From assembly GCA_017471705.1 (NCBI GenBank), contig JAFUSH010000034.1:43934-107933 (forward strand): DNA of 64,000 nt, written 5' to 3'. Below the pieces are notes generated by a model, which was not told the DNA's origin, ran no database searches, and worked only from the letters and a program-made list of their open reading frames with translations. The DNA is from Alphaproteobacteria bacterium (GTDB lineage: Bacteria; Pseudomonadota; Alphaproteobacteria; RF32; CAG-239). Shown here in pieces: positions 36,744-57,717 of this stretch. Each line of letters begins with the position of its first letter. Position 1 is the first letter of the stretch. Made by a program: the position numbers and the translations under genes.

Positions 36744-36744
36744 A

Positions 36745-37866: not shown

Positions 37867-37877
37867 ATTTCAAACTC

Positions 37878-39689: not shown

Positions 39690-39698
39690 AATTGCCTT

Positions 39699-41327: not shown

Positions 41328-42555
41328 AGATTTCTCCTTTGTAAGTCCACATTCCGGAATTAATGTCGTATGTTATAGTATCAACCGTTAATCCTGAAAA
41401 TTTCATTAATAAATCACTCCAAATCAGCGGATCGTTGTTTGATGATATTGAATAAGCCATCAGTTTATATTTTGTACCGCGCGGTGACATCCAAGTTTTA
41501 GGACCGAATGATATACTTATTCCCAAAGATTGATTAATATCATTTAACACGTTTATCAAATCTTCTTCATCATATTCCGGAGGTGAATTCAATTTGGTGA
41601 TTTCACCTATCGGAACCGATACCATAACAGTACTGCCGTCTCGTCCCAAAACGCGCGATGAAAATTCAACGCCGGATACATTAAGCGCTTGTTCAATCCA
41701 AGTTAATCTTCCGAGGTCACGGCGCCAAGAAGTCACAACCCCCGCATTCGGTGTACAGGTAATACCTTCAATATGCCACCCCGGAGTGACCACCTGCACG
41801 ACCTTTTTGGTAGTCAAATAACACTGACGCATAACGTCTAAAGGATTATTTAGCTCTACCCAAGGCTTAGGTTCCGGCGGCAAAGGCGGTTCTTTTACTT
41901 CAACGGGTTCTATAACCGGTTCTTCCGGCGCGGTGAAAAATAAGTCTTTCAGGGTAGAATAACCGAACCATAAGATAACGGCAAAGCAAACAACTATAAC
42001 TCCCAGCATTAATGTATCATTGCTGGCGTTGATTTTTGCCAACCTTGTTTGGATACCTTTTTCCAACATAGGTCCCAAATGGTCAGCTTTGGTATCTTCT
42101 ATTCCCCAATCGGCCGGTGCGAATATAATGTCCCAATCCGGTACGGCTAACATTGCGATAAGCTGGTTTTTAGCATCTTTCTCGTTGATGAATAAAGTAT
42201 CACCGTCCGACAATATAACTTCGTTTCTGAAACATATATACCACCAACCGGTATCAACTTTGAATACGCCCAAGAAAGAAGTAACGGCTCCCAGACCGGT
42301 AATAAGAGATACCGCAGCAGAAGGCAATCCGGGGGTGAAACCTTGAGAGGAAGCGGCTAAACCGAACTGAGACGATTTACCTTTACGGGTAACGTACAAA
42401 TCTGCGCCTTCCAGAATATTTTCTGCGGCCTCCTTTACTTCCGGCAAAGGCTTTGCTTCGTTTAACAGCGGTTGCCAGAAAAGACTCGCGGCGTAAGTTA
42501 TCCCTCTTTCGGTGAAAGATGATCTCCAAGCCTTATCTTCAGTTTGATCTACCAC
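41308..42555 (-). CDS. bitopic pilus assembly protein (R64 PilO / GspL-like topology)
   Basis: A ~190-aa cytoplasmic domain, a single TM (LMLGVIVVCFAVILWFGY), a Pro-rich linker and a ~180-aa periplasmic domain. Located between the secretin and the PilP-like gene. Confidence 0.4.
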   Translation of the reverse strand: MVDQTEDKAWRSSFTERGITYAASLFWQPLLNEAKPLPEVKEAAENILEGADLYVTRKGKSSQFGLAASSQGFTPGLPSAAVSLITGLGAVTSFLGVFKVDTGWWYICFRNEVILSDGDTLFINEKDAKNQLIAMLAVPDWDIIFAPADWGIEDTKADHLGPMLEKGIQTRLAKINASNDTLMLGVIVVCFAVILWFGYSTLKDLFFTAPEEPVIEPVEVKEPPLPPEPKPWVELNNPLDVMRQCYLTTKKVVQVVTPGWHIEGITCTPNAGVVTSWRRDLGRLTWIEQALNVSGVEFSSRVLGRDGSTVMVSVPIGEITKLNSPPEYDEEDLINVLNDINQSLGISISFGPKTWMSPRGTKYKLMAYSISSNNDPLIWSDLLMKFSGLTVDTITYDINSGMWTYKGEIYEKQPE

Positions 42556-42571
42556 TTGCTCTCTCCTTAAA

Positions 42572-44194
42572 CTAATCGTTCATTCTGGATTCAGGTGATA
42601 ACGGCGATTCCAAAACAACCGGTGTTAACATAATAACAAGAATGGTTCTGGCTTTTTCAGCTGATTGCGAACCGCCTAACAGCATATTTTCAGGAGTTCC
42701 CACACCTTTTTTATCAACAGAATCTTCAACGCGTTCATAACCTGCCAAAATCAGCGTTTCACCCGATTTCATCGCAACTTCCTGTGTAAATCCGCGGGTT
42801 TCGATTACAGGGTTCTGAATGGATTCGGAATCACCGCCGCCTTCTTCACCGCCTCCGCTGACCGTAATGGTATCAAGCGACAGCAAGTCAGACAGTGTCA
42901 GGTTGAAAAACATTAAGATACGACCGTGATCCAAAATTCTCGGCAATACACTCATAGTGAAACCGGTTTCAATTTCCTCGGTATCGACGGAAACATCATA
43001 AGTATCACTGTCACCGCTGTTGGTCTTGGTAATTTGTGAAATGTAGTTTTGCGTTTTAACAACTTGAATCGGAGCCGGTTTATTGTTCATAGTCGTAACC
43101 GTACCGCTGGTAACCAAATTGGTTTGACCTTCTTGAGATAATGCCTGCATTGCGGCATCAACGCTCCAACTCTTGCTGCTGACAGCCATTGTCAAGTCAC
43201 TTAAAGCATTACCCAAATCACCCGGATGGGTTCCGGCAGTTACGCCTTTAATGCTACCGCGTTTATCAAAAGTTGCCGTTAAATCCAAATTATATTTATC
43301 GGCATTTGATATACTGAGCTGAATAACTTTTACGCTGATGGCGACTTGTTTGGATACACGATTATTTTGCTCATTGATATATTTTGCCACACGACGGATA
43401 TCTGTCGGTGTTGATGTAAGGTTAATAGTACCGCTTGCCTTATCAATATTAAGATTTGCATCTTGTGAAATCATAGATTGAATGGTGCTTTCCAAATTGC
43501 TCCACAAATCGAGTCCGTCAATAGAGCTGCTTTGCGAAATGCTGGAAGCACCTGCATCGGCACCGCCCACACTGACGCTCAAAGAAGGGCTTGTCGGTAA
43601 CGAATAAATTACAAAAGTTTTGGTAATAAACTTATAAAAATAAATTTCACCTTTTTCATATTTCCACCAAATACCGAAGCGGTTGGCAACTTCATCCAAT
43701 AAACCGCTCATCGGACCTTTGTAGTTGACAATCATTTTGGTCGAATCGGTCCATTGAGTGCCGATTTCATCCATAGAAGGTTTATTGCTGTCGGCCTGAG
43801 AAATAGCTGTTTCTTCAAGTTCAGGAGCATAACGAACCGAAAGAGAAGTGATTTTACTTATCATTGAACCGATTTCATACAAAGTAATAGGACGGTTGCT
43901 GATTAAAGTAATACCATCTTTCTTTTCCAAATAGGTCGGGATAGGTTCGCCTTCAAATTCAATTTTGGATGTGTCGCCGAGCCAAATATCGTTCTTAACT
44001 CTTACCACATCGTCAGGAATAGGCTCGGTAGGCATTGCTGCTTTCTGTTTTAAGTCCAAGGTATCCTTGGCACGCTGCGCCATTTCCCTGTCCATTTCCG
44101 GAGAGATGGAACAAGCTACCGTAATTCCTAAGATGCACAGTGTTAATAGTTTAAATATATTAGTCGTACGCATTTTCGTCCTCCATTGTTTCAA
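42572..44194 (-). CDS. secretin lipoprotein (type IVB pilus PilN/BfpB/TcpC family)
   Basis: Lipobox LGITVAC. The C-terminal secretin domain reads ETLILAGYERVEDSVDKKGVGTPENMLLGGSQSAEKARTILVIMLTPVVL. It lacks the N0-N1 GspD-type N-domain arrangement, consistent with T4bP lipo-secretins. Confidence 0.75.
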   Translation of the reverse strand: MKQWRTKMRTTNIFKLLTLCILGITVACSISPEMDREMAQRAKDTLDLKQKAAMPTEPIPDDVVRVKNDIWLGDTSKIEFEGEPIPTYLEKKDGITLISNRPITLYEIGSMISKITSLSVRYAPELEETAISQADSNKPSMDEIGTQWTDSTKMIVNYKGPMSGLLDEVANRFGIWWKYEKGEIYFYKFITKTFVIYSLPTSPSLSVSVGGADAGASSISQSSSIDGLDLWSNLESTIQSMISQDANLNIDKASGTINLTSTPTDIRRVAKYINEQNNRVSKQVAISVKVIQLSISNADKYNLDLTATFDKRGSIKGVTAGTHPGDLGNALSDLTMAVSSKSWSVDAAMQALSQEGQTNLVTSGTVTTMNNKPAPIQVVKTQNYISQITKTNSGDSDTYDVSVDTEEIETGFTMSVLPRILDHGRILMFFNLTLSDLLSLDTITVSGGGEEGGGDSESIQNPVIETRGFTQEVAMKSGETLILAGYERVEDSVDKKGVGTPENMLLGGSQSAEKARTILVIMLTPVVLESPLSPESRMND

Positions 44195-45143
44195 CTACCA
44201 GAACTCGGTTGCCTTTATAGAAGGTTGCAACCGGAGCCGGTCTGGCGCGTGCAAATGCTCTTATCAGTGCGGAAGCCACATCGGCAAAATTTCCTCTGAA
44301 CATAGCGCCGGCATTTAAAGTGTAGTTACGATTCGTTTTCCAAATCAATCTCCATCCGGCTTCATCGCTCCACATAGTCAGAAGTTCTTTAAGGCTCTGT
44401 CCTTCTTCTGCTAACCAATCCTTATTGGCTGAACTTTCCTCAGATGCTTCGTCATCACCGTCTTGAATATTTCCCCCTTGAGCAATATTTCCTTGTGTGC
44501 CGCCGGTAGTATTAGAAACGGTATATCCGTTTTGTACATATTGAGGTTGTCCTGCAACTGCCGGAGTGTTCGCATAAGCTGCTTGCCCCTGTCTGCCGTT
44601 TACCGGAACCTGTCTGCCGGCTGTCGGAACTTGTCCTCCTCCGACTGTAGGAGCCGTTCCGCCGTTTGCAGTTACCATCGGAGCATTGCCGTTTGCCGCG
44701 GGAGCAGCTCTTCCGTTATGCGGAATCGGAGCCGCCGGATTCCACGATTGATCATATCCGTTGTCAGCGATAACGCTGTTTTCGTATTCCACCACTTCAT
44801 TATCTATGCTCGGCGGAATAGCCGCAGATATATTATTTCCGGCGCCCGCTTGTGTAATACGATGATCTCGAGGCGAACGTTCGCCGTATCCACGAAAATC
44901 TGCAGCACCGCGAGTATAATTTATGTTGCCGGCATCACTGCATTCGCTGTAACCGTCGGCATTTTCAACGCAAACCGCCGTATATTCTCGATTACTGGTG
45001 CAGATGCCGTTTTCGCATTCTTCTTCCAGATAGCTTCTGTTGCTGAGGGCGCCGATACAGCCCGACGTGCTTAAAATGCAACAAATTAAGCCGGTAACAG
45101 CCAGTTTGTTTGTTATTATTTTTCCTTCAAATTTATTTCTCAT
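44160..45143 (-). CDS. PilL-like lipoprotein with C-terminal TcpQ-type domain
   Basis: Lipobox LSTSGC. A Gly/Asn/Ala/Pro-rich linker. The C-terminal ~90 aa reads DWLAEEGQSLKELLTMWSDEAGWRLIWKTNRNYTL...FRGNF, resembling the TcpQ/PilL domain. It is immediately upstream of, and overlapping, the secretin. Confidence 0.55.
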   Translation of the reverse strand: MRNKFEGKIITNKLAVTGLICCILSTSGCIGALSNRSYLEEECENGICTSNREYTAVCVENADGYSECSDAGNINYTRGAADFRGYGERSPRDHRITQAGAGNNISAAIPPSIDNEVVEYENSVIADNGYDQSWNPAAPIPHNGRAAPAANGNAPMVTANGGTAPTVGGGQVPTAGRQVPVNGRQGQAAYANTPAVAGQPQYVQNGYTVSNTTGGTQGNIAQGGNIQDGDDEASEESSANKDWLAEEGQSLKELLTMWSDEAGWRLIWKTNRNYTLNAGAMFRGNFADVASALIRAFARARPAPVATFYKGNRVLVVETMEDENAYD

Positions 45144-45191
45144 CGTATTTTCCTATAATACACGTTAAAATTGAAATATCAACATCGGATT

Positions 45192-46841
45192 CTAATACCA
45201 AGGATTATCGGCTCGTTTCATTGCCTTTATCTTGTCATCTTCCGATGCGTATCGTACATTCCTAATAATAAATGAGTTTGGCTCCCTATCGGTAAAAATT
45301 ATGTTAATTTTATGATAATCAACACCATTATTGGCCAAAATCTTGTACAACAGCTTTAAACGCTTTTCCTGCAAAGCGTACGGAGCTGTCTTGTCTATCC
45401 TTATTTCGATAAACACATCTTCGTTTTTCACCGAATTATCTGCGAAAGCGTGTAGCCATTCAAGAGTTTGACCGGAAATTTCCGCCCGATTCGGCTGAAA
45501 AGATAATTTTAATTCGGAAGGAGTAATGTTATCATCATTGCTACCCCCGATGCCTAAAAGCTTATTAAATATTGAACCTTCGCTTTTTTGAGATTTTTTA
45601 TTGTTATTTTTACTTTGAGTTTTCGGAGCAGTGATATTATCGTTACCGGTCTTCTTTTTAGAACCTGAAAACCACTCGGCGATACTGTCCGATAAACTTT
45701 TAGAAGTTTCTTCGTCTGCATCGACATCATCGTCTTCTTCAAAATCTTGAAAATCATCGTCGTTATCATTGTTTGATTTGGTACTTGATGAATTATCAAA
45801 ATATTTATCATCATCTAAGGCCGGAAGTGTGTGTTTGGCACGCAGTTCGCGCTCTAACTTCAAATTTTCTTCCGAAGATGAAAATTGCGGTGTCAGATTA
45901 CGCTCATTCGCAATGTTTTCCGGTATGGGAATGACTAAATTTTTTTGCATTCTGTATTCTTCGGTCGGTTGCTCAATAACTTCCTGATCCGGAGAAATAA
46001 TGTTATCTTGATGCTTTGCCGCGTAAACATTAGCGGAATTTTCCTCAGATTTTTTATTCGAAGTCTCTGCAACTTCCCACGGATTTGTATATCCTTCGTC
46101 GGAAGAAGATAGGCCGGCCGAAAATTCGGATTTCCCAATATATCCGTCGTTATTTACCAACGGTTCGGTCACAGCCGCATAGGTATCGGCTCCCAAATTA
46201 TCGGTACTTACGCCGCTTGAAGCCATAGCAATTTGGTTTTCATCGGCACTGTCCGAAAATACTACAGTTCCGTTTTCCGTTTTATAGTGGTGTACCAAAG
46301 GAATTCTGAAAACCGGAGCTTCAGAGGCATCGGCTATTTGCAATTCTTCGGATTCTTCTTTCGTTTCAGCCACCTCTAAAACAGAAGAATTTTCAGCATC
46401 AGCTATGTCTAAGATAGAGGCATCTTCAATACGCAAATCATCGTTGTCCGAAACCTTAACTTCGGCGGACTTTTCATCTAATTCGGTATAATCGGTAGTT
46501 TCTGGTCGGTATAGCACTGTATCGGAAGAACCTGATTTGACGCTTTGATTTGAAATCAATTTATCTTCATCGTTATACGGCAATTCATTATGTTGTTCCA
46601 AACTTTTGAATTTGTCATATAACGGATCATTTTCTTCATTGGCGGCAAAAAGCTCAATATTTTGAGCCGGCAAATTTTCAATATATTCTTCCGTCGGTCC
46701 GTTTTCATTCAAAGACAAAACAAAATAAGCCTTGGTAACCGAAAATACGGCAACCAGTGAGAGAATAAAGCTTCCTAAAAAGCATTTTAAACCAAGTTTA
46801 GGCATTCCAAAATCCCATACATTCATTAAAGGTATCGGCAC
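45192..46841 (-). CDS. membrane-anchored highly acidic low-complexity protein (549 aa), first gene of the pil-like operon
   Basis: N-terminal TM/signal anchor LGSFILSLVAVFSV, long D/E/S/N-rich stretches (DNDDDFQDFEEDDDVDADEE), and a conserved-looking ~100-aa C-terminal domain. Confidence 0.45.
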   Translation of the reverse strand: MPIPLMNVWDFGMPKLGLKCFLGSFILSLVAVFSVTKAYFVLSLNENGPTEEYIENLPAQNIELFAANEENDPLYDKFKSLEQHNELPYNDEDKLISNQSVKSGSSDTVLYRPETTDYTELDEKSAEVKVSDNDDLRIEDASILDIADAENSSVLEVAETKEESEELQIADASEAPVFRIPLVHHYKTENGTVVFSDSADENQIAMASSGVSTDNLGADTYAAVTEPLVNNDGYIGKSEFSAGLSSSDEGYTNPWEVAETSNKKSEENSANVYAAKHQDNIISPDQEVIEQPTEEYRMQKNLVIPIPENIANERNLTPQFSSSEENLKLERELRAKHTLPALDDDKYFDNSSSTKSNNDNDDDFQDFEEDDDVDADEETSKSLSDSIAEWFSGSKKKTGNDNITAPKTQSKNNNKKSQKSEGSIFNKLLGIGGSNDDNITPSELKLSFQPNRAEISGQTLEWLHAFADNSVKNEDVFIEIRIDKTAPYALQEKRLKLLYKILANNGVDYHKINIIFTDREPNSFIIRNVRYASEDDKIKAMKRADNPWY

Positions 46842-47030
46842 CGATAAGGCGCAAATATCCCACTATTTTGTTTGAAGATACAACTGATTGTGTTAAAATA
46901 GAGTTAATGATATAAATGAAAGTTGATAAGCCGGAAAAATGTTCAAAATACAGCGGCTGTTGCCATCTGTTTCTCGCGCACGCGCGCAATCTAATACCCT
47001 TGTAATCTGCGGAAAAATTTTGCTTTATAA

Positions 47031-47077
47031 AAAGTTCACAAAAAGTTCACAATTATTTTGCCGAGAATATGTTACAA
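47031..47077 (+). promoter_or_regulatory. tandem 10-bp direct repeat AAAGTTCACA x2 followed by an extended -10 (TGTTACAAT) in the pil/virB2 divergent region
   Basis: Exact tandem repeat at 47031-47040 and 47041-47050. TGnTACAAT lies at 47069-47077, upstream of virB2 paralog 1. Confidence 0.3.
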
Positions 47078-47309
47078 TCAATTTAACACTCAAAGAGTAT
47101 ACCGAAGTTAAACAGAGATATATTTCTTATCAGTTTATTAACCTTTTGGTGTTATTCGTGGTGTGTATAACTGGTGTATTGTAGAAATTTTTGTGAAAAT
47201 TCAGATTGATATAGACAAATGGGATATATTTTAACAAAAGTCTGGAAATTTTTTGTAAAATGATTTACAATAACAGTGTGATTAAGAATATATGTTAAGG
47301 AGAACTGAA

Positions 47310-47672
47310 ATGAAATTCTTAAAAAACAACATTATGAGCATTTTGGGTATGACCTTCTTATTTACGATGGTTATGCTGGGCGATGCAAACGCTACGGTGT
47401 TTGAAGATGTAAAAACAAAACTCGTAGATTTGTTCAAAAATGCTAAAATGGTAGTATTTATTATCGGTGGTTTCGGTTTGATTTGTTTGGCTTTCCAAGC
47501 AATCTTCGGAAAAGTTAAATGGGCTTGGTTTGCTGCTCTGGCTTTCGGTTTGGCCGTTGTGGCTGCTGCCGGTGCTATTATTAACTACGCTGCTAATAAC
47601 GATGTTGCTACCGGTAAGAACTTCTCAGATACATTGGGTGACGGTTCCGGTGCATCTAGTATGGGTCATTAA
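47310..47672 (+). CDS. virB2: VirB2/TrbC-family T4SS pilin, paralog 1
   Basis: Signal peptide followed by two hydrophobic helices separated by a short loop (VVFIIGGFGLICLAFQAIFG...WAWFAALAFGLAVVAAAGAI). AAGGAG RBS before the ATG at 47310. Confidence 0.7.
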   Translation: MKFLKNNIMSILGMTFLFTMVMLGDANATVFEDVKTKLVDLFKNAKMVVFIIGGFGLICLAFQAIFGKVKWAWFAALAFGLAVVAAAGAIINYAANNDVATGKNFSDTLGDGSGASSMGH

Positions 47673-47743
47673 TGCCAAGAATGATATTCGGGGGGAGCCC
47701 AGTCTCTCCCCGAATGTGGTAAAATTTTAAGGCGGAGGTAGAT

Positions 47744-48064
47744 ATGTTGTGCAATAGTATAAAGAGATTTTTGTACGAGAACAGATATGCAATTATCTTA
47801 TTTGTTTCTTTATTCTTTTTCATAACCGATGCCTCTGCTGAGACATTCGGTGCATTATCGACTGCCGGCACGGCAATTTTTCAGGGCTTGCGCAAAATTA
47901 TATATCCGGCGGCTACCATAGGTATAGCCTGTGTTTGTATCGGAGGTATGTTCGGCAGTTTTAACTGGAAGTGGTTAGTGGCAATTCTGTTGGGTGTGTT
48001 TATTATAGCCACGGCTAATTCCGGAAACGGTGTGGATGCTATTGCTATGGACGGCAGTAATTAG
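47744..48064 (+). CDS. virB2: VirB2-family pilin, paralog 2
   Basis: The same architecture (signal; ATIGIACVCIGGMFG...WKWLVAILLGVFIIA). GGAGG RBS. Confidence 0.65.
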   Translation: MLCNSIKRFLYENRYAIILFVSLFFFITDASAETFGALSTAGTAIFQGLRKIIYPAATIGIACVCIGGMFGSFNWKWLVAILLGVFIIATANSGNGVDAIAMDGSN

Positions 48065-48074
48065 GAGAATGCAG

Positions 48075-48473
48075 ATGAAAAGAATCGGCGTATTATGTTT
48101 TTTTATTTTAATTTGTTGTGTTGCTTTTGTTTCTCCGGCATTTGCCGAGCCTTCATCCGGTGATGCTATTTGGACTAAATTAGCTGGCAAGGCCAGTACT
48201 ATAGGGGTAGGTTTGCAGAAAAGCGGCTTTATTATAGGCGGTATCGGGTTAATCTTTTTTTCATTTATGGCAATTTTTAACAAGATATCGTGGAAGAATC
48301 TTGCCTATATTATGCTGAGCTGTTTTGTGCTTTCGGCAATGGTTGCATTGGTTAATTATTTTTCGGCAAAAGATGCAACCAGTACGGCTTCGTACTCAGA
48401 ATTTAACGGTCCTGACGGCGAGGTTTCTTTTGAAGGAGGCGTAGCTCCTGCCGGAGGGACGGCGCATAAATAG
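48075..48473 (+). CDS. virB2: VirB2-family pilin, paralog 3
   Basis: Signal MKRIGVLCFFILICCVAFVSPAFA and two hydrophobic helices. RBS AGGAGAATGCAGATG. Confidence 0.65.
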   Translation: MKRIGVLCFFILICCVAFVSPAFAEPSSGDAIWTKLAGKASTIGVGLQKSGFIIGGIGLIFFSFMAIFNKISWKNLAYIMLSCFVLSAMVALVNYFSAKDATSTASYSEFNGPDGEVSFEGGVAPAGGTAHK

Positions 48474-48482
48474 GGGAATATA

Positions 48483-48923
48483 ATGAGGTTGTTTGCTTGG
48501 CTGAGTGCTTTTTGTTTTTTTATATCGGTATCCCCTGCTATGGCATACATAGAAGAAGATACTGCCGGAATGACGGAAGCAGATGCCGGTGAGCAGAATA
48601 CCAATATGTATAAACTGAATGCACGCGGTGATTATTTTATCAAGAAACTGAAAAAAATAGATGAATATGCCAGTAAAAATAGTCGGTATGAAGTGCCTAA
48701 TCTGTCCGATATAAATGACATAAACAGTTTTGAACAAAAGAATAAGGAAGAAGAGCAAAATAAATTGATTTTAGCCGACGTGGTTAAAATGACGTCTAAT
48801 CCGCAACAACTGAAAGTTATTCTTAAATCCGATGTTTATACGTCATTGACGGCTATTAACGAAGTGCGCGATGCACAAGTTGCATCGGTATTGCAAAGAC
48901 AAATTGCCGGAGGACGCCGATGA
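48483..48923 (+). CDS. small secreted protein (146 aa) between the virB2 paralogs and virB3
   Basis: Signal peptide MRLFAWLSAFCFFISVSPAMA, then a hydrophilic Lys/Glu-rich body. It overlaps the virB3 start by 4 bp. Confidence 0.45.
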   Translation: MRLFAWLSAFCFFISVSPAMAYIEEDTAGMTEADAGEQNTNMYKLNARGDYFIKKLKKIDEYASKNSRYEVPNLSDINDINSFEQKNKEEEQNKLILADVVKMTSNPQQLKVILKSDVYTSLTAINEVRDAQVASVLQRQIAGGRR

Positions 48924-49210
48924 GAGAAGAGATTCTGAAAGCGGTTGCGCAACCTCCGAAAGTACTGTGGGCTCCGATGGTACCTGCTCTCATAAATTTA
49001 GGCGTTCAGTTTCCGATGATGTTTATCGGTATGGGTATCGGCGGAGCTAACCCGCTGTATTTTGTTGCTTGTATTATAATTGCGCACGCCGTGTTGGTGG
49101 GGTTGGGAATAAAAGAGCCGCATTTGTCCACAATGCTGCAGGCTTACGGTCAGACATACAGAAAAACAATAAATCTTTATGTGGTAAAGGGTAATAAGTT
49201 TGAGCCATGA
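48920..49210 (+). CDS. virB3: type IV secretion system protein VirB3
   Basis: 96 aa, two TM. LWAPMVPALINLGVQFPMMFIGMGIG is VirB3-like. Translationally coupled to virB4. Confidence 0.75.
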   Translation: MREEILKAVAQPPKVLWAPMVPALINLGVQFPMMFIGMGIGGANPLYFVACIIIAHAVLVGLGIKEPHLSTMLQAYGQTYRKTINLYVVKGNKFEP

Positions 49211-51636
49211 ATGAATACGATTTTTTCAGCATATTTGTGCAAGGATTAAACAATATTCAGGTAGCTGTAACGGTAATAGGTATTATTGCCGCGGCTTCGT
49301 TTTCGGTTTTATTGGTGACCAAATTCGGTAATTGGGTGTTGCCGCAACCGAGAGAATCACGGGTTTCAGACTTTTTGCCGTTTCAAAAATTGATGTCCGA
49401 CGGAGTTACCATTCAATGCAGTAACAATTCCTATGCCCGAGTATTCAGATTAGATGGTGTTGATTTATCATCTGCGACCAACGAAAAAGTATATTCTATG
49501 ATGGAAGCGCGGAAGGCGTGGATTGACGATATGTCAAATATGCAGGTAATATGCCGTATTATAACCACCAGAGACAGAGCTTCGTTGGAAAGTGAAAAAC
49601 GCGACTTCGGTAACAAATTGCTGGAAACTGTTTCAAAAATTTGGTATGAAGGGATGAACCGCGTTTATGAGAACAAACACTATATTGTTCTTTCGGTTAT
49701 TGATCGTAAAGACGCCTTGAAGGATTTGAACTACGCATCTCAAAGTTTGATATCTACATTGGGAGAGTATGGGGTAAGTCCTATGTATGAAAGTGATACC
49801 AGCAGTCCGCTTGATAGTCCGTTTTATTTGTTTTCTCATCTTTGCAGTCCGGTTTCCAAACCGACGCCGAAGGTTCGTAATACCGGCGGGGCGCGGATGT
49901 GCGAAATGCTTACGGCTGACCATATTCATTTTACGGAAGAGGAAGGAATTATTCATTTTTTCTCGGGTGACAGCGATTTGTTCGAAATTGTTATGGGAAT
50001 TCGTGTCAGCGGTGAAGCAATGGATGAAAGTATGATATATTCTTTGAACGCCATTGATTGCGAGTTGGTAATATTGCACAATATCAGACCGTTTTTCAGG
50101 GCTGAGGCCAGAGGTTTGTTAATGCAGCAACAGCGTATGGCAATGACTACGAGTTTGTCGGGAGGAGTGGTGGAGCAATACGCCGCGGCTCTGGCTTCAA
50201 TTGATGACAGTGATAATGACTATCAATCGCTGTGTGAATATTCAATGAGCATAATAGTAAAAGGAGCTTCAAAAGAAGAGTTGGATTTCGGAGAATCTGA
50301 AGTACAAAGAATATGCCGTTCTTTCGGTGTTACTCCGGTTCGGGAAGGCTGGGTAACGCAGGCAGTGTTCTTTACGCAATTTCCGACATACGATACTTAC
50401 CCGAGAACTTATCGCTATCTTTCACGCGTTATAGCTATGGCAATAACTATGGATAAACCTGCCGAAGGCTTCGGAAAAAGCGACTGGGGAAAAGGAGCAA
50501 TTACCATTTTCCGCACAATGTCCGGTTCGGCATATCGTTTCCAATTTCACGTAAGCAGTGAAGAATCGGCAGTGGCTCACTGTTGTATTATCGGTCCTAC
50601 CGGTCAAGGTAAAACAACGTTGTTGACATTTTTGGCCGGTCAGGCGATGCGGCACGGTGATTTGAAAGTGTTCTTCTTTGATCGTCACTTAGGTGCGCAA
50701 ATATTCACTCGAGCCGTTAAGGGAGCATATATCGGTTTTGACGGTGACGAAAAAAATGTTTCGCTTAATCCGTTTGATTGCGCAAATACCGCGGAAAACA
50801 GAGCGTTTTTACGTCGTTGGCTGAAGTCTATTACTATGATTGATGATGCTTTGGCCGATCGCGAAGTTTCTCGTGCGGTTACGACTGCTTTTGATTATTT
50901 ACGTCCGGAAGAACGTTTGTTGAAGAATCTGTATAAAAGTTGCTTTTCTCCGACCGGAAATATGCGCAGAGAGCTGTATCGTTGGGTAAATCCGGATCAA
51001 TACGGAGCTATTTTTAACGGTCAGGATGACAGTTTGGATTTGAAGAGCCGGCGCTTTATGGCTTTCGATTTCACACATATTTTTGAAGATGAGAATTTGG
51101 CTCCGGCGGTAATCAGTTACATTATGCACCGTATTCAAGCCGAAACCGGAGAAACCGGCGTTCCGTCATTGATCATGATTGATGAAACGGCGCCAATGCT
51201 GAAGCACCCGATGTTTAGAGATTATTTCATTATAGGTTTGCAAGAAGGACGTAAGAAACGTCAGGCTTACTTATGTGCGTTCCAACAACCTAACATTGTA
51301 GATAAATTGGGCGTGGGCGAAGTTATTCGCGGTCAATGTCAAACGGTTATTTTCTTCAGAAATCCGCAAGCACAACCCGATGATTATGCTAACTGGAATT
51401 TGACGCAAAATGAGCTTGATTTTATATTCGGTAAGAGTTACCGCGATTTTCCGTATGCCATACTGCTTTCCCGACCTGTTACCGGAGAATCGGTGATATT
51501 GGATGTTAATTTGGGCGGTTTGGGTAAATATCTGCGAGTTTATAACTCAGGTCGTAAGAATGTGTTGTTGGTTCAGCAGCTTATCCAAGAGTACGGCGAA
51601 GATAACTTCCTCACGAAATATTTGGATTTCTCATAA
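49207..51636 (+). CDS. virB4: type IV secretion system ATPase VirB4
   Basis: 809 aa. Walker A IIGPTGQGKTTLL, Walker B LIMIDETAPM, VirB4/CagE/TrbE domain order. Confidence 0.9.
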   Translation: MNEYDFFSIFVQGLNNIQVAVTVIGIIAAASFSVLLVTKFGNWVLPQPRESRVSDFLPFQKLMSDGVTIQCSNNSYARVFRLDGVDLSSATNEKVYSMMEARKAWIDDMSNMQVICRIITTRDRASLESEKRDFGNKLLETVSKIWYEGMNRVYENKHYIVLSVIDRKDALKDLNYASQSLISTLGEYGVSPMYESDTSSPLDSPFYLFSHLCSPVSKPTPKVRNTGGARMCEMLTADHIHFTEEEGIIHFFSGDSDLFEIVMGIRVSGEAMDESMIYSLNAIDCELVILHNIRPFFRAEARGLLMQQQRMAMTTSLSGGVVEQYAAALASIDDSDNDYQSLCEYSMSIIVKGASKEELDFGESEVQRICRSFGVTPVREGWVTQAVFFTQFPTYDTYPRTYRYLSRVIAMAITMDKPAEGFGKSDWGKGAITIFRTMSGSAYRFQFHVSSEESAVAHCCIIGPTGQGKTTLLTFLAGQAMRHGDLKVFFFDRHLGAQIFTRAVKGAYIGFDGDEKNVSLNPFDCANTAENRAFLRRWLKSITMIDDALADREVSRAVTTAFDYLRPEERLLKNLYKSCFSPTGNMRRELYRWVNPDQYGAIFNGQDDSLDLKSRRFMAFDFTHIFEDENLAPAVISYIMHRIQAETGETGVPSLIMIDETAPMLKHPMFRDYFIIGLQEGRKKRQAYLCAFQQPNIVDKLGVGEVIRGQCQTVIFFRNPQAQPDDYANWNLTQNELDFIFGKSYRDFPYAILLSRPVTGESVILDVNLGGLGKYLRVYNSGRKNVLLVQQLIQEYGEDNFLTKYLDFS

Positions 51637-52226: not shown

Positions 52227-53453
52227 ATGATGGTAAATACAAAGAGATTCAATATTTTGGCCGGCGTTGCCTTTATGATAACGTTTGCGGCGCCTGATGC
52301 AAAAGCTTTTCCGTTGCTTTGTGGGGATCCTTCCCGTTTAGTAGCCAGCGCTAAGGTTACAATGCAGGAAATTATGATAATCAAGCAAGAAGTTGAGAGT
52401 AATCTGCGAATCATTGAAGAAATTCGCAACGGTGGCTTTGCCGCAGCCGGTGCGATGATTTTCGAGAAAATTCAAAACGGTGATTATGATCGCTTCGGTA
52501 AAGCTTTGAGTAATGTTAAAACCAATGCGCAGGATATGGCACATAATGTGGCGGAACGTGAAGAAAGAGCTAAAAGGGAAAAAGAGCTGAGAGAAAGCGG
52601 TATGAGCGCTAAAGAAGCTAAGGCTAAGGCTCAACAAGAATCCGCCGAGAGAATGGTAGAATGGCAGAAAAAACAAGACGAAGCCAGAGAAAAAGCTAAA
52701 TCTGAGCGCGGTTCAAACGCTTTTACAAATTCGTATAACTGGCTGAAAAATAATCAATCATTTACCAGCGGCGCCAGCACTGCTTTAAGAGGTGTTGACA
52801 GCGGCAATTGGGGACAGGCTTTAAGCGGTGCGGCAGGTGCCACCGGAGGTGCAATCAACAGCGGCGGCGAATCCACACTCGGAAACATTTTCCAAAATGC
52901 GGCAGGCGGTGCCGGAAATGCTCTGAACAGCGCGCTTGACGGCAATTGGGGTAATGCCTTTAATGCAGCGGCCGGAGGCGCCGGTTCCGCAATTGGCGGC
53001 GCGACTGGATCCGAAGGTATCGGTAATACCATCGGTGCGATTGGTAATATAGGCGCCGGTGCTTATGATGCTATCAGCAGCGGCGATGGTTTCGGCGGTA
53101 CCGTAAATAATTTAATTAATAACAACCAGATAAACTCCGGACTTACCGGTTTAGAGAACGGCTATAATCAAACACAGGAAGAGCGCGAGGCCGCGCTTAA
53201 AGCTCAAGAAGAAGCTGCGAAAAAACAAGCCGAGGAATTAAAAAAAGGATTAGACGAACAGATAAAGAAGGATCAAGAAGAGAGAAAGAAAGAGCAACAG
53301 AAAAAATGTCAGGAATGCCGTAAAAATGCTCAAGCCGGAGCAGAAGCTGCGGCGAAGGCTGCCGGTAAAACGGGATTGGCGGCTCAAGCAGATGCAGAAG
53401 CAAGGGTTAATAGCCAATGTTTAAGTGCTTGCGGTGGTTTTTCAGGTATGTAA
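52227..53453 (+). CDS. secreted coiled-coil / glycine-rich GNWG-repeat protein with C-terminal CxxC...CxxxC motif (paralog A)
   Basis: Signal peptide, an N-terminal coiled coil, two ~47-aa Gly/Ala/Asn repeats (GNWGQALSGAAGATGG...; GNWGNAFNAAAGGAG...), a Lys/Glu coiled coil, and a C-terminal CQEC...CLSACGG. Confidence 0.6.
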   Translation: MMVNTKRFNILAGVAFMITFAAPDAKAFPLLCGDPSRLVASAKVTMQEIMIIKQEVESNLRIIEEIRNGGFAAAGAMIFEKIQNGDYDRFGKALSNVKTNAQDMAHNVAEREERAKREKELRESGMSAKEAKAKAQQESAERMVEWQKKQDEAREKAKSERGSNAFTNSYNWLKNNQSFTSGASTALRGVDSGNWGQALSGAAGATGGAINSGGESTLGNIFQNAAGGAGNALNSALDGNWGNAFNAAAGGAGSAIGGATGSEGIGNTIGAIGNIGAGAYDAISSGDGFGGTVNNLINNNQINSGLTGLENGYNQTQEEREAALKAQEEAAKKQAEELKKGLDEQIKKDQEERKKEQQKKCQECRKNAQAGAEAAAKAAGKTGLAAQADAEARVNSQCLSACGGFSGM

Positions 53454-53465
53454 AGGAGCAAAACA

Positions 53466-54740
53466 ATGAAGAATAAAATATTAAACAGAATCTTATTTTT
53501 AACAGTTATTTCGGTAATGGTATTGCCCCTTCCGTACACAGTATCGGCGCAGACATTTACACCGCCGACTAGTAATGATGATCCGATTGACGGCGGTTCT
53601 ATCGGTGAAGTTGTGGTTACAGGCAAGAAACCTACATATACGGCGAATTTCAGCGGATTTAATCCTACTCCGCTGGATGGAGCAACTATCCCGACCATAA
53701 ATGTTACGGCAACTGCTCCTGCTCCTGTTGTCACTTCAGATGGTAATGATGATCCGATTGACGGCGGTTCTATCGGTGAGGTTGTGGTTACAGGCAAAAA
53801 ACCTACATATACGGCGAATTTCAGCGGTTTCAATCCTACTCCGCTGGATGGAGCAACTATCCCGACCATAAATGTGGGTAATTCTTATGACGGTCCGAGT
53901 GAAGAAGATGGAGAAGAAGGCACTGCAGGTGAGAGCTATACAATGACTTCGACTGTTCGTACGAATGATAACGGTAGTATAAACGAAACTACGGACAGCA
54001 GTTCATTTACAATAACCGACGGCGGAACAGGAAATGGTACAGATTTATCTGCAGCAATCGCCAATGCTGGCGGTAATATAGTTCCGGATCCAACGACTAC
54101 AACTATTAATCCCAGTGATGTAAAAATAGATAATTTACCGCAGCCGACAACTACAACGGTAAAGGAAGAGGAAGATTTAAGTCAGTATACCGGTTTGTAT
54201 AACGGTCGTCAGTTATTACCGGATATTATGGCGAGACATTGCCGAATTAAAGGTGAAGATGTTGCTAAAGATGTAAGTTTGTATGTTGAATGTATCAAAC
54301 AGTATGTTTCGGAAATGAACAGTTCCAATGCGGCGGCAAAAGCTAAAGCTCAGGAAGAATTTGAGATATTGCGTTATAAAGGATTGTTGGATATGGCTTC
54401 CAATGCGATGACCAAGTCGCAAAGTGTTCTCAATTATGAAAACACGATGAACGAATACAATAAAGCTGATCAGGATATGCAGACCGAATTTGACGATAAT
54501 CACGCTTTGATAGCAACAATGTCGTTTATTACCGATGTTATGAACAGTTTCAGAGAACTGCAGGCTGAACAACTTAAGTATTTGGCGATAAGCGGTATTG
54601 TTAACGTTGATCCGGCGGTTGTTTTGGCAGATGAAGAAGAGGAAGAACCGGAAGAAAAGAAACCTGCATCAACAAACGGTAATGCTGGAGATGCGGAAAT
54701 ACATACCACGGAAGCAAATACCACGATTAAACATAATTAA
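53466..54740 (+). CDS. secreted protein with a 57-aa tandem repeat, a Thr-rich linker and a C-terminal helical domain
   Basis: Signal peptide. The unit NDDPIDGGSIGEVVVTGKKPTYTANFSGFNPTPLDGATIPTINV occurs twice. PTTTT linkers and an acidic tail. Confidence 0.6.
   Translation: MKNKILNRILFLTVISVMVLPLPYTVSAQTFTPPTSNDDPIDGGSIGEVVVTGKKPTYTANFSGFNPTPLDGATIPTINVTATAPAPVVTSDGNDDPIDGGSIGEVVVTGKKPTYTANFSGFNPTPLDGATIPTINVGNSYDGPSEEDGEEGTAGESYTMTSTVRTNDNGSINETTDSSSFTITDGGTGNGTDLSAAIANAGGNIVPDPTTTTINPSDVKIDNLPQPTTTTVKEEEDLSQYTGLYNGRQLLPDIMARHCRIKGEDVAKDVSLYVECIKQYVSEMNSSNAAAKAKAQEEFEILRYKGLLDMASNAMTKSQSVLNYENTMNEYNKADQDMQTEFDDNHALIATMSFITDVMNSFRELQAEQLKYLAISGIVNVDPAVVLADEEEEEPEEKKPASTNGNAGDAEIHTTEANTTIKHN
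53571..53876 (+). repeat. two 135-bp near-identical direct repeats (53571-53705 and 53742-53876) inside a coding region
   Basis: About 5 mismatches over 135 bp. The 171-bp period is in frame. Confidence 0.8.
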
Positions 54741-54778
54741 CTGACTGCAGGGAAACTAGAACGGAGGGAGATGGAATT

Positions 54779-56422
54779 ATGAATAAGAGAATGTTAGCAA
54801 TATTCATTGCCGCAGCGCTGGTAGTTTTTCCGAAAACCTCCAAGGCCGATTTGGATGTACTGTCTATTGCCCAAGATCAAATAACGTCAATTACGGAAAA
54901 AGTCGGTGCTATTGTTAAAAAATATACGCAAATTCAAGCAAGTTTGCAGGAATTGAGCTTAAACCGTAATATTGTGTCGCAGTTGAAGGATAAAGTAAAA
55001 TCAGAATTAAAGTCAAGAGCTATGGCTTTTTACGGAGATTTGAAAGATATGGCAATGGCGGAAGGAATGGCATTTCTGAAAACTTCTTTAAGCAGTGTGT
55101 CGTTACCGGGGGTCGGTCAATACATCGATTTGGGAGGCTTTATTAATCCGAAACTGACGGTGGCAGTCGGCAAAACTTATTTAAAGAAAAAGCATAAAAA
55201 GAATGATGTACAAAGTACTGTGGCGCAAGATGAGCGCAGTAACAATCTGATGATAGATAATTTATCTGTTTTATTTGCCAACAGTTTGGTTCGTCGTAAG
55301 CAGATTATAGAAGAAGATCCTTGCAGTTGCGTTGCCGAAGCAGGCAGAGATTGCAGCGAAGAAAAACAAAAATGTGAAGATCAAGAAAAAGAATTTAATG
55401 AAATGAGCGATATCAATGTTGTAAAGAATAAACAGTATGGAGTTATGCTTAACGCTAATCATCGCTGGTTAAAAATTAAAGAAGCGGTTGCAATGTATGC
55501 AAAGATGAAAGGCGAGGCAATGATGAATCAGGGTAATATAGATGATATCAGTGCTATAACCGGTGAAATAGAAGATGAGGAAGAAGAGGATGACACCGGT
55601 GAAGATGCAGTTCAGGCTTTAATGCAAAACAAAATCAATCCGTTGGATTTGACGAATTCAGTGAAAGACAGTTTAAATAAAATTAAAAGCGGCGATTATA
55701 CAGGTGCTTTTGCCGGCGCAATGGGGACAGCTACCGATTTATACGGTAATGCTCCCGGCAGTTGGGATAGTGTTACTAAAGCTATGCAAGAAGTTACCAC
55801 CGGTGCAGGTGCTTTGAATAATGCTTACCATAATGCCGAGAACGGAAACTGGGGCGGCGCGCTTAATTCAGCTTTAGGCGGTGCCGGAAATATTGTAGGA
55901 AGTACCGGTAATGAAGGGTTGGGTAATATATTCAATAATGCCGCCGGAGGAGCCGGAAACGCGCTTAACTCTGCACTTAGCGGAAACTGGGGCGCGGCCA
56001 TAGGCAATGCGGCAGGCGGCGCCGGAAATGCAATCAGCGGTAGCGGTAATGATGTTTTGGGCAGTTCAATCGGTGCGGTCGGAAGTTTAGTTAATGTCGG
56101 AGTAAATGCGGCAAATGCCGGCGGAAATTTAGGCGATATTATTGATAACACCGTGGGCAACAGTCAAGCTCAAGGAGCGTTGAATGCATTGTATGGTGCG
56201 TATGATGCGCAAAATACGCAAAACGCGGCCATTGTAGAAGCTCAGCAAAAAGCGGAAGAAGAACGTAATAAAAAATTTGAAGAAATGAAAAAACAGCAAG
56301 AAGAAGAGATGAAAAAGCGCAAGCAGGCTGAGTGCAAAAAATGCAATGAAGATAATGAAGCTTTGTTAAAAGCGGGCAAGCCGCTATCATCGCTCAAATC
56401 TTGTATCGGTGTTTGTATGTGA
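54779..56422 (+). CDS. secreted coiled-coil / glycine-rich GNWG-repeat protein with C-terminal CxxC...CxxxC motif (paralog B)
   Basis: Signal peptide, a VirB5/TrbJ-like N-terminal coiled coil, a mid Cys cluster CSC...C...C, and GNWGGALNSALGGAGN.../GNWGAAIGNAAGGAGN... repeats that resemble paralog A at the DNA level. C-terminal CKKC...CIGVC. Confidence 0.6.
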   Translation: MNKRMLAIFIAAALVVFPKTSKADLDVLSIAQDQITSITEKVGAIVKKYTQIQASLQELSLNRNIVSQLKDKVKSELKSRAMAFYGDLKDMAMAEGMAFLKTSLSSVSLPGVGQYIDLGGFINPKLTVAVGKTYLKKKHKKNDVQSTVAQDERSNNLMIDNLSVLFANSLVRRKQIIEEDPCSCVAEAGRDCSEEKQKCEDQEKEFNEMSDINVVKNKQYGVMLNANHRWLKIKEAVAMYAKMKGEAMMNQGNIDDISAITGEIEDEEEEDDTGEDAVQALMQNKINPLDLTNSVKDSLNKIKSGDYTGAFAGAMGTATDLYGNAPGSWDSVTKAMQEVTTGAGALNNAYHNAENGNWGGALNSALGGAGNIVGSTGNEGLGNIFNNAAGGAGNALNSALSGNWGAAIGNAAGGAGNAISGSGNDVLGSSIGAVGSLVNVGVNAANAGGNLGDIIDNTVGNSQAQGALNALYGAYDAQNTQNAAIVEAQQKAEEERNKKFEEMKKQQEEEMKKRKQAECKKCNEDNEALLKAGKPLSSLKSCIGVCM

Positions 56423-56439
56423 TAAGGGAGGACAAGGGT

Positions 56440-57705
56440 ATGAAAAAATATAATAAAAAGATTTTAATACTTGTAGCCGTTTCTTATCTGTCGGTGACTG
56501 CTCCGGCAATGGCTGTAACCAAATTGGAAGCTACAGGACCGGCTGCCGATATTGTTAACAAAATTCAGAAAGTTAAAGAAAAGTTCGAAGATATTCAAAC
56601 AAAGATAATGAAGGAGAAGGAAAAGTGGACCAAAAAGGCAGAGGCTTTCTTGGATAAAACACTTGGAACCGAAGGCGCGGCTTTGTTTAAGCAATATGTT
56701 GTAGAACCGGGAGCCGGTATTGTTAAAAGTGTTGCTAAAGGTCAGTATAACGCAGGTGATTTCAGTTTAAGCGGGTTTACCAGCGCCATAAAATCGGAAC
56801 TTGGCAATTACAAACTTGATTTTGCAACTTTGGTGTCGCAAGCAAAAGATATGGCTAATACTGCGGCCAAAGCCAGACTTGAAAAGAGCAGAGCCATTGA
56901 AATTCAAGTTGCTAAGCTGCAATCTGAATGGGATGCAAAGAATAATCTTAATGCAACCGTGAAGTCGGCTCAGTTGGAAGCAGAACTTGAAGAATTGGCT
57001 AAAAGAATATCTGGATTGAAAGAGCAAGCGGCTCAACTAAACAATAAGACGCTTGAGGAAACCGAAGCTCAAAAGAAAATGCAGGAAAAGATGGTGGCAA
57101 TGCAGGATTTGATGGCAAGTTACAGCGGTAAAATATCTCAGGATGATTTACTTAAAAAACTTAATGCCGAGGCAATGTCATTGTTCACGCTTAAAACCGA
57201 TGAAGAAGAAGATCAGGCGATATATTCTGCCAGTATGGAAAAGCTGTTTTTAGGTAAGTATGATTTCGGAACATCTGAGAATTTGGCGAGAATTCGCCGC
57301 GCTCGTCAGGAAGAATATTATAAGTCCGAAAAGAATATTCTCAAAGTTATTGTCGAAACTTATAACAGTATTGAAAATACCGAACAAAACATAAAAGGCT
57401 GTACGCAGGCAAGCGGAGAAGCACAGGCTATATTCGGCGGCAGTGCTATGCGTGTATGTGTCGATGTTCAGATAATAAAGATAGCAGCACAATATATGGA
57501 AATGTTATTGGCGCAAATTCAACAGGAAGCCAGTTTGGAGATTCAAAACTGGGCGGATATATACAAATTACCGGATTACAACCGTGATTATACCAAGTTT
57601 AATTTGGATGATTACGTTCTGACCAAAGATGACCTGAAAAAGAATTTGAAAAGTATGGCAACCGGAGCCATCGGTGATGCAATGATGAAATTTAAAGGTT
57701 TTTAA
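56440..57705 (+). CDS. secreted coiled-coil protein (421 aa)
   Basis: Signal MKKYNKKILILVAVSYLSVTAPAMA. GGGAGG RBS before the ATG at 56440. Long helical heptad regions and two Cys. Confidence 0.55.
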   Translation: MKKYNKKILILVAVSYLSVTAPAMAVTKLEATGPAADIVNKIQKVKEKFEDIQTKIMKEKEKWTKKAEAFLDKTLGTEGAALFKQYVVEPGAGIVKSVAKGQYNAGDFSLSGFTSAIKSELGNYKLDFATLVSQAKDMANTAAKARLEKSRAIEIQVAKLQSEWDAKNNLNATVKSAQLEAELEELAKRISGLKEQAAQLNNKTLEETEAQKKMQEKMVAMQDLMASYSGKISQDDLLKKLNAEAMSLFTLKTDEEEDQAIYSASMEKLFLGKYDFGTSENLARIRRARQEEYYKSEKNILKVIVETYNSIENTEQNIKGCTQASGEAQAIFGGSAMRVCVDVQIIKIAAQYMEMLLAQIQQEASLEIQNWADIYKLPDYNRDYTKFNLDDYVLTKDDLKKNLKSMATGAIGDAMMKFKGF

Positions 57706-57717
57706 GAGAGGTGTGAA

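Follow-up and report, generated by a model that had tools for sequence, protein, structure and literature searches.

The stretch of DNA analysed here (the window) comprises 64,000 nt of contig JAFUSH010000034.1 (assembly GCA_017471705.1, positions 43,934 to 107,933, forward strand) from an alphaproteobacterium placed in the order RF32 by GTDB. At 47310-51636 it carries three adjacent genes for VirB2-type pilins (virB2a, virB2b and virB2c, encoding B2a, B2b and B2c), a gene for a secreted protein of 146 aa (X146), and virB3 and virB4. On balance, we favour the view that these genes make up the 5′ end of a heavily elaborated chromosomal type IV secretion system (T4SS) of the VirB/Trb type, in which B2a is the major pilin, B2b and B2c are specialised pilins and X146 is an accessory protein. 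The type of machine is known. What is new is that its pilins fall into three lineages specialised long ago, and that a conserved hairpin of the dosage type and a lineage-specific accessory accompany them. In the searchable literature we found neither a description of a three-pilin T4SS of this kind nor an account of the T4SSs of RF32 or gut Alphaproteobacteria. The features on which the argument turns are the following.

47310..47672, + strand: virB2a, 120 aa; PF04956 at 33.7 bits; ribosome binding site AGGAG; predicted signal peptide 1-28, helices ~44-67 and 69-95
47686..47715, + strand: GC-rich stem-loop ATTCGGGGGGAG / CCCAGT / CTCTCCCCGAAT, just after virB2a; 12-bp stem with one G-U pair
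47744..48064, + strand: virB2b, 106 aa; PF04956 at 41.5 bits; ribosome binding site GGAGG; predicted signal peptide 1-32, helices ~51-73 and 73-94, short tail
48075..48473, + strand: virB2c, 132 aa; PF04956 at 29.5 bits; ribosome binding site AGGAG; predicted signal peptide 1-24, helices 32-68 and 73-99
48483..48923, + strand: X146, 146 aa; predicted signal peptide cleaved after SPAMA and before Y; stop overlaps the virB3 start (ATGA)
48920..49210, + strand: virB3, 96 aa; hydrophobic segments; overlaps X146 and virB4 by 4 nt each
49207..51636, + strand: virB4, ATPase of 809 aa; TIGR00929 at 2e-112, PF03135

The three pilin ORFs (open reading frames) are members of the TrbC/VirB2 family by profile, topology and context. 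All of them scored above the gathering cut-off of Pfam PF04956 (TrbC/VirB2, 27.9 bits), and a precomputed match to this family was also present on most B2c orthologues. Hydropathy revealed two hydrophobic helices in each pilin, with short basic loops (GKVKW in B2a, SFNWKW in B2b and NKISWKN in B2c), and the signal peptides end in AxA cleavage motifs (ANA before T in B2a, ASA before E in B2b and AFA before E in B2c). For B2c, an AlphaFold2 model built on a 40-sequence alignment gave helices 32-68 and 73-99, a loop at 69-72 and a disordered tail, with a pLDDT (predicted local distance difference test) of ~80 in the core. virB3 and virB4 follow directly downstream in the same orientation. The original prediction of three adjacent VirB2-type pilins with a signal peptide and two helices was thus correct. 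Its description of paralogs 1 and 3 as having Gly/Ser-rich tails also agreed with what we found, the tails being Gly/Ser/Ala-rich and divergent; that of virB2c is a disordered Gly/Ala/Ser tail of 34 aa. Among the three paralogs, virB2c is the most divergent.

We collected homologous loci from 80 species-level genomes and searched all of their ORFs with the three pilin proteins. Identity to the VirB4 of the window is 69-97% in 78 of these loci and 49-50% in the remaining two. The closest matches, at 97%, are the rumen metagenome-assembled genomes (MAGs) RUG772 and RGIG4925, which are labelled Alphaproteobacteria or Rhodospirillaceae. The 76 further species-level genomes, at 69-93%, come from ruminant, human, horse and rabbit gut, and an identical VirB4 protein is present on contigs of one ruminant gut metagenome series. 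These gut and rumen MAGs may represent the GTDB order RF32. Hereafter, clade A refers to loci with VirB4 83-97% identical to the window and clade B to the sister clade with 69-79%. The independent gene calls of the public assemblies gave the same genes, and they support the starts of the three pilin ORFs, each of which is preceded by a strong Shine-Dalgarno sequence. Housekeeping genes fill the window (addA/addB-type nucleases, murJ, tyrS, uvrA, queH and ABC transporters). The nearest plasmid-borne VirB4, on pMVF16-3 of Microvirga sp. VF16, is only 37% identical, and nucleotide searches of plasmids returned no similarity. As the system is conserved in 80 species genomes, with 37% VirB4 identity at best and no nucleotide match on plasmids, it is a conserved, vertically inherited chromosomal feature of the lineage and not a recently arrived plasmid.

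Among the 80 loci, 64 were informative, that is, had enough sequence upstream of virB3. Their arrangements were as follows.

Three-gene array, B2a-B2b-B2c: 51 of 64 loci (including two in which one gene was mislabelled by a margin of 1-9 bits)
The array with an extra B2a copy: 7 of 64 loci
B2c missing: 1 of 64 loci
Cut at the contig end: 1 of 64 loci
Housekeeping genes and no virB2: 4 of 64 loci

The three pilin lineages thus stand side by side in 58 of the 64 informative loci. They fall into three orthologous groups, with a mean identity of 44-61% within groups and ~25% between them. In a neighbour-joining tree of 95 core columns, B2c was monophyletic (67/67), and so was B2b (66, plus one mislabelled sequence). 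Within the window the paralogs are only 25-30% identical in pairwise comparisons, and no DNA repeats were found between the three pilin genes. These distinct orthologous groups imply that the triplication predates the radiation of the lineage and that each copy was kept. The pilin set therefore looks like an ancient triplication with specialisation and not like a variable array in the style of Trw or Anaplasma. Recent extra copies are occasional and involve only B2a, some of them with long insertions. In one clade-A species (locus L057:8465-10004), the order is B2a-B2b-X146-virB3 with a clean absence of B2c, which at least one lineage can thus do without. In L051, L059, L061 and L071, and in the truncated L060 and L073, virB3-virB4 come directly after housekeeping genes (secA, nusA-infB-rbfA or xerD/aroK) and virB2 is lacking upstream, so that the T4SS is split in a manner that recalls Rickettsiales.

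The known cases of multi-copy virB2, in Anaplasmataceae and Bartonella Trw, have been read as variation arrays. The original prediction drew this analogy for the three genes here, and it did not stand up to the low paralog identity, the lack of repeats and the fixed order. Nevertheless, such an array, with variants expressed together or alternately so as to diversify what is exposed, for adhesion to different hosts or immune evasion, has to be weighed. In clade A, identity to the window in the core helices is 87% for B2a, 77% for B2b and 56% for B2c. The tails are only 39%, 17% and 19% identical, respectively, and the mature N-terminal segments 36-59%. The two ends are thus the fastest-evolving parts of the pilins, as in virB2 arrays, and the same two regions, the mature N-terminal segment and a segment near the C-terminus, are hypervariable in Anaplasma VirB2 (PMC3556328). 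The extra B2a copies and the many fast-evolving secreted proteins of the whole T4SS would also fit an array. We compared nonsynonymous and synonymous substitution rates (dN and dS). In the comparison of all clade-A pairs, dS was saturated and the tails aligned poorly. Between the closest relatives (VirB4 97% identical), dS was still 1.0-1.4 for virB3/virB4 and higher for the other genes. The dN/dS values were as follows, the closest-relative values for pilins being those of B2b and B2c.

Pilin cores: 0.08-0.22 over all clade-A pairs; 0.03-0.05 between closest relatives
Pilin tails: 0.59-0.77 over all clade-A pairs; 0.08-0.34 between closest relatives
X146 residues 22-62: 0.31 over all clade-A pairs; 0.02 between closest relatives
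X146 residues 63-146: 0.50 over all clade-A pairs; ~0.09 between closest relatives
VirB3: 0.11 over all clade-A pairs; 0.02-0.03 between closest relatives
VirB4: 0.01 between closest relatives

By paralog, core values were ~0.08 for B2a, 0.05-0.14 for B2b and 0.03-0.22 for B2c, and the cores appear to be under strong purifying selection. In the tails, dN was ~10-fold that of VirB4. A ratio above 1 was nowhere seen, tails included; as dS is saturated, this can be stated only as no evidence for ω (dN/dS) > 1, and diversifying selection on a finer scale is possible. The comparison of mature regions proposed with the original prediction therefore found the tails fastest and still below 1. Of the surface variation that it proposed, the fast evolution of the tails stood, but a diversity-generating array did not. 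Three stable orthologous groups of 25-30% identity with no shared DNA repeats, their fixed order, the low ratios even in the tails of the closest pairs, and a hairpin that among the clade-A pilin genes follows B2a only (see below) make a variation array unlikely.

The three pilins do not seem to be equivalent. When the single VirB2 of pMVF16-3 was compared with the orthologue profiles, it scored 88.9 bits with B2a (1.5e-28), 52.6 with B2b and 42.4 with B2c. B2a thus appears to be the closest of the three to the ancestral single-VirB2 type, and it seems to be the most conserved. The stem-loop just after virB2a points in the same direction. The 90 nt past the B2a stop have a minimum free energy of -30.1 in the window. 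In 60 of 64 loci (94%), the first 70 nt after the B2a stop contain a stem of 8 bp or more, with a median length of 11 bp and a median minimum free energy of -24.6 kcal/mol. Among 400 random 70-mers from the same loci, only 14% had such a stem and the median was -11.6. After B2b, clade-A B2c and X146, the frequency was 0-26%. Sequences of the hairpin vary from locus to locus, and what is conserved is the structure. A hairpin that among the clade-A pilin genes occurs only after B2a argues for unequal roles. Its simplest reading is a partial or attenuating terminator, or an mRNA 3′ stabiliser, that would raise B2a over the rest. Genes for major subunits that head a pilus operon are usually arranged in this way. 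These features suggest that B2a is the major pilin. An Rfam scan of 46500-49500 found no RNA family, and a scan for terminators and promoters gave counts no higher than in shuffled sequence.

B2a also has a characteristic tail. In the window, the motif FSDTLG occupies residues 107-112 (47628-47645) and is followed by a variable Gly/Ser end. In essentially all B2a orthologues, a motif [F/Y/L]-x-D-[T/S]-[L/F] lies 12-25 residues past helix 2. The 0-20 residues beyond it are variable, and in several species the protein ends at the motif (…DSL, …DSLK or …DTLQ). The same motif is present in the Microvirga VirB2 (DFGDTLTAR) and in clade-B B2b (GI[ST]DTL…); clade-A B2b has a related A-D-[L/M]-x-G instead. 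B2c lacks the D-[TS]-[LF] motif and usually has basic residues at its C-terminus. Possibly, D-[TS]-[LF] in B2a is a maturation or recognition site. Because some orthologues stop at the upstream motif, the Gly/Ser-rich end of paralog 1 looks dispensable, and it may be a leaving peptide and not a displayed variable epitope.

In clade B, B2c is much longer, 328-629 aa. A normal signal peptide and pilin hairpin are followed by a C-terminal extension of 200-500 aa, for example in L040:8415-9578, L047:757-2646, L063:7762-9576, L054:8724-9710 and ~20 other loci. The extension consists of an acidic linker, motifs containing Cys and a region rich in Gly/Asn/Ser/Asp, and no Pfam domains were found in it. 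Similarity of these long tails to the Gly/Asn-rich proteins of 408 and 547 aa downstream of virB4 was considered and dismissed (nothing by phmmer, 33% probability by hhalign); it is compositional at best. Other pilins are extended at the opposite end. Inserts of 60-230 aa between signal peptide and core were observed in L036:54-1109, L082:8521-9132, L079:1297-1926, L033 and L035. These five loci form a small subclade, which has X146 together with a B2c carrying an N-terminal insert of 100-230 aa. Extra recent B2a copies with such an N-terminal insert were found at L082:6838-7584 and L007:1848-2333.

These extensions raise the question of whether B2c, or B2b, is a pilus subunit at all. Either or both might be inner-membrane proteins of the VirB2 fold that serve outside the pilus, for example as a platform or primer for assembly, as an anchor holding periplasmic or surface domains to the membrane, or as a factor in exclusion or immunity. 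Extensions of 200-500 aa at either end of B2c are hard to fit into tight helical packing. B2c has no counterpart of the tail motif shared by B2a, clade-B B2b and the plasmid VirB2, and its scores are the lowest both with Pfam and against the plasmid protein. However, the B2c core is strongly conserved (~90% identical within clade B, dN/dS 0.03 in close pairs) and retains the basic loop. Cryo-electron microscopy (cryo-EM) structures of F-, T- and N-type pili have both termini of the pilin facing outward; with such termini, the extensions could be displayed if the subunits carrying them were sparse. We regard the non-pilus explanation as improbable, somewhat more so than a variation array.

A bolder version of the pilus reading is that the three VirB2 proteins are non-interchangeable parts of a heteropolymer, that B2c is a display pilin whose conserved hairpin scaffold bears fast-evolving passenger ends facing outward, and that X146, as a partner encoded by its own gene, takes over part of this role where the long tail is missing. 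We put this forward as an unlikely speculation. If true, a T4SS pilus would carry adhesin-like domains as direct fusions to its pilin. We know of no described precedent for such a fusion, and a full-text search of the literature for pilin-fused display found none.

X146 lies upstream of virB3, where an extra secreted protein in a non-canonical position had been predicted, and this was confirmed. The signal peptide that had been ascribed to it is present, but the protein, described as Lys/Glu-rich, is only mildly rich in these residues and Asn (K 9.6%, E 8.8%, N 8.8%). The mature N-terminus is conserved (AY[IV]EE...GEQNTNMY...KKLKKIDEY) and the remainder is variable, the C-terminal two-thirds evolving fast. 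A word-indexed search returned 33 homologues, of which the named ones were all Alphaproteobacteria MAGs. An exhaustive profile search of 1.84 billion proteins yielded 37 cluster representatives, mostly of ~130-160 aa. There was no match in Pfam or NCBIfam, no PDB entry had an E below 0.78 in a profile search, and Foldseek found no matches for a model of low confidence. X146 thus appears to be a lineage-restricted orphan family, secreted or periplasmic and under purifying selection. The clade whose VirB4 has an identity to the window of 83% or more has X146, whereas the loci of the sister clade lack it and leave no room for it. The clade lacking X146 is the one with long-tailed B2c; the complementary pattern is suggestive, though not evidence of shared function. 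We compared the X146 profile with 23 long B2c proteins with filters off, and the best E was 0.2, so that an origin of X146 by detachment from the long tail of B2c was rejected at the sequence level. X146 was also rejected as VirB7: its cleavage site has no +1 cysteine, and a lipoprotein of 62 aa elsewhere in the cluster fits VirB7.

With low confidence, we suggest that X146 is a Sec-exported, clade-specific periplasmic accessory in pilin handling or pilus assembly. Alternatively, it could be an effector that is secreted, or a divergent VirB5-like protein found at the pilus tip or as a minor pilus component. A small protein with a signal peptide and a predicted all-helical fold, encoded beside pilin genes, would suit such a role. 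Its fast-evolving C-terminal two-thirds would be expected of an exposed protein, and Pfam recognised no VirB5 among the neighbouring genes. On the other hand, neither profile nor fold searches related X146 to VirB5, TraC, TrbJ or CagL, its mature form of 125 aa is about half the size of VirB5, and the sister clade does entirely without it. A secreted coiled-coil protein of 421 aa encoded downstream is at least as good a candidate for VirB5/TrbJ. We therefore consider a tip protein or effector very unlikely.

The genes from virB2b through virB4 are tightly packed, with spacers of 9-10 nt or ATGA overlaps. The overlapping stops and starts reported for virB3-virB4 were found as 4-nt ATGA overlaps, and the junction of X146 and virB3 has the same form. 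The 96-aa ORF scored 17 bits with the Pfam VirB3 family, below the cut-off of 23.9; its orthologue profile matched the annotated VirB3 of pMVF16-3 at 7e-15. As a small membrane protein encoded directly upstream of virB4, it appears to be VirB3.

The cluster continues beyond virB4 (window 52227-62379; equivalents L083/L084:1-20756). Between virB4 and virB8 there are five large secreted proteins without Pfam domains, of 408, 424, 547, 421 and 1553 aa. The first four have coiled-coil or Gly/Asn-rich regions, several of the five have Gly/Asn-rich repeats (GNxxNxAGGAGNALNSAL) and Cys-rich C-termini, and the whole T4SS is rich in such fast-evolving secreted proteins. The 424-aa protein (53466-54740) contains a near-perfect internal duplication of ~45 aa, with DDPIDGGSIGEVVVTGKKPTYTANFSGFNPTPLDGATIPTINV occurring twice. 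In two samples of one study it was called as 288 aa (L083:1484-2350) and as 424 aa (L084:1076-2350); this could be a polymorphism of repeat number or start site, or an assembly artefact. Past the secreted proteins the order is virB8, the 62-aa lipoprotein, a second virB8, a VirB9/CagX protein of 552 aa, proteins of 1014 and 486 aa, and a VirB10 of 1412 aa. The 62-aa lipoprotein has an LSAC lipobox and is homologous to the small lipoprotein of pMVF16-3 (1.7e-11), which fits a VirB7 homologue.

The pilus of a T4SS is usually viewed as a polymer of a single VirB2, in some cases with VirB5 at its tip. In the explanation that we favour, B2a would be the major subunit of the pilus or channel, and the hairpin downstream of it would keep its transcript above those of the later genes. 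B2b and B2c would be specialised pilins of lower dose, perhaps acting in initiation, at the tip or in display. Their cores would assemble together with that of B2a, and their N- and C-terminal segments, periplasmic and later facing the surface, would be free to evolve fast. The D-[TS]-[LF] sequence in the B2a tail would mark a site of maturation or recognition, with the variable residues beyond it removed. X146 would be exported by Sec, made in step with VirB3 and VirB4 through translational coupling, and would assist the pilins or the pilus in the periplasm.

Several results weigh against this explanation. Behind the long clade-B B2c genes and virB3, stems of 8 bp or more are found as well, in 52% and 40% of cases, respectively. 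In the window the hairpin lacks a T-run after it, and for this reason the terminator scan made no call there. The pilins could not be linked to known structures: PDB searches with the three single sequences gave chance matches only (antibody heavy chains and ClpP), a PDB profile search with B2c gave nothing significant and no link to solved VirB2 pilins, and a Foldseek comparison of the B2c model with PDB structures returned zero matches, short helical hairpins being poor queries. The AlphaFold2 model of X146 is all-helical at a pLDDT of 61, which is low confidence. The machine of the sister clade lacks X146, so this protein is not a general requirement. Saturation of dS leaves the dN/dS values approximate. 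Among the cluster proteins inspected there was no polytopic VirB6, and no VirB11, VirD4 or relaxase was located in the DNA within reach.

Upstream of virB2a there is a divergent intergenic region of 468 nt, shared with a type IVb pilus operon. It contains a candidate promoter.

47243..47271, + strand: candidate sigma-70-like promoter TGGAAA-17-TACAAT, from a consensus scan only, ~40 nt upstream of virB2a

With 8 sites found by the promoter scan and 7.3 expected by chance, this candidate is not significant alone. The type IVb pilus cluster, divergent from virB2a, looks complete (36192-46841, - strand, and 35220-36188, + strand). It encodes a PilL-like protein with a TcpQ domain, a PilN-family secretin, PilO, a protein of 542 aa, a PilQ-type ATPase and a PilR-type platform protein. 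The gene of this cluster directly upstream of virB2a encodes an acidic, fast-evolving protein of 549 aa, with 50 homologous ORFs across the related loci. A separate PilT/TraJ/DotB-like ATPase of 322 aa is encoded near the cluster.

The closest plasmid system, that of pMVF16-3, shares the order virB2, virB3, virB4, secreted proteins, VirB7-like lipoprotein, virB8, virB9 and virB10. Its VirB2 matches the B2a profile and has the same C-terminal F-x-D-T-L, and its VirB3 and small lipoprotein are homologous to those of the window. However, the plasmid has one VirB2, no X146, an adjacent relaxase and the canonical order through virB11. The locus described here has three VirB2 groups, X146, five large secreted proteins, two VirB8 and a VirB10 of 1412 aa, and is chromosomal.

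In Anaplasmataceae, virB2 is present in 8-15 copies, a number varying between strains (PMC3556328). The rvh systems of this family resemble the present one in having tandem VirB2 beside virB4, a signal peptide with two helices, variable ends and a duplicated VirB8; like them, some relatives of the window have virB3-virB4 with no virB2 upstream. In contrast, the copy number here is essentially fixed at three, the groups are ~25% identical and there is no flux beyond the B2a duplicates. Large polytopic VirB6 paralogs were not seen here, and the host lives in gut or rumen and is not known as an obligate intracellular organism. In Bartonella, the copy number of trwL varies between species and recombination hampers the assignment of orthologues (PMC2883598). 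Trw is, like the present system, a chromosomal T4SS derived from conjugation, in which two or more VirB2-type pilins are encoded ahead of virB3/virB4 and surface components evolve fast (PMC2883598). Unlike it, the present system has clean orthology, a fixed order and no co-amplified VirB5-VirB6-VirB7 unit.

RP4 TrbC and Ti VirB2 have an N-terminal signal and a C-terminal segment past helix 2, as B2a has, with its motif followed by a dispensable variable end. C-terminal processing of TrbC was reportedly described by Eisenbrandt et al. in 1999. The likeness to a pro-pilin that loses its C-terminal peptide would suggest such processing for B2a. However, the RP4 cleavage site differs from D-[TS]-[LF], and no TraF-like peptidase was identified here. 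The cyclisation reported for such pilins has itself been disputed for the T-pilus by cryo-EM (10.1101/2022.04.28.489814). Relative to its plasmid cousins, the present system has duplicated subunits and large extensions, kinds of change that the Cag and rvh systems display as well. This resemblance suggests that the present system serves contact with other cells and not self-transfer.

The locus thus differs from variation arrays in having three ancient pilin lineages with signs of unequal dosage. The retention of all three, together with these signs, points to a division of labour among VirB2 subunits, like that between major and minor type IV pilins. If the long B2c proteins of clade B are true pilus subunits, they would represent a natural display of domains on a pilus of the conjugative type. 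The hosts are a widespread group of uncultured Alphaproteobacteria of the rumen and the human gut, and the locus offers a handle on their contact with other cells.

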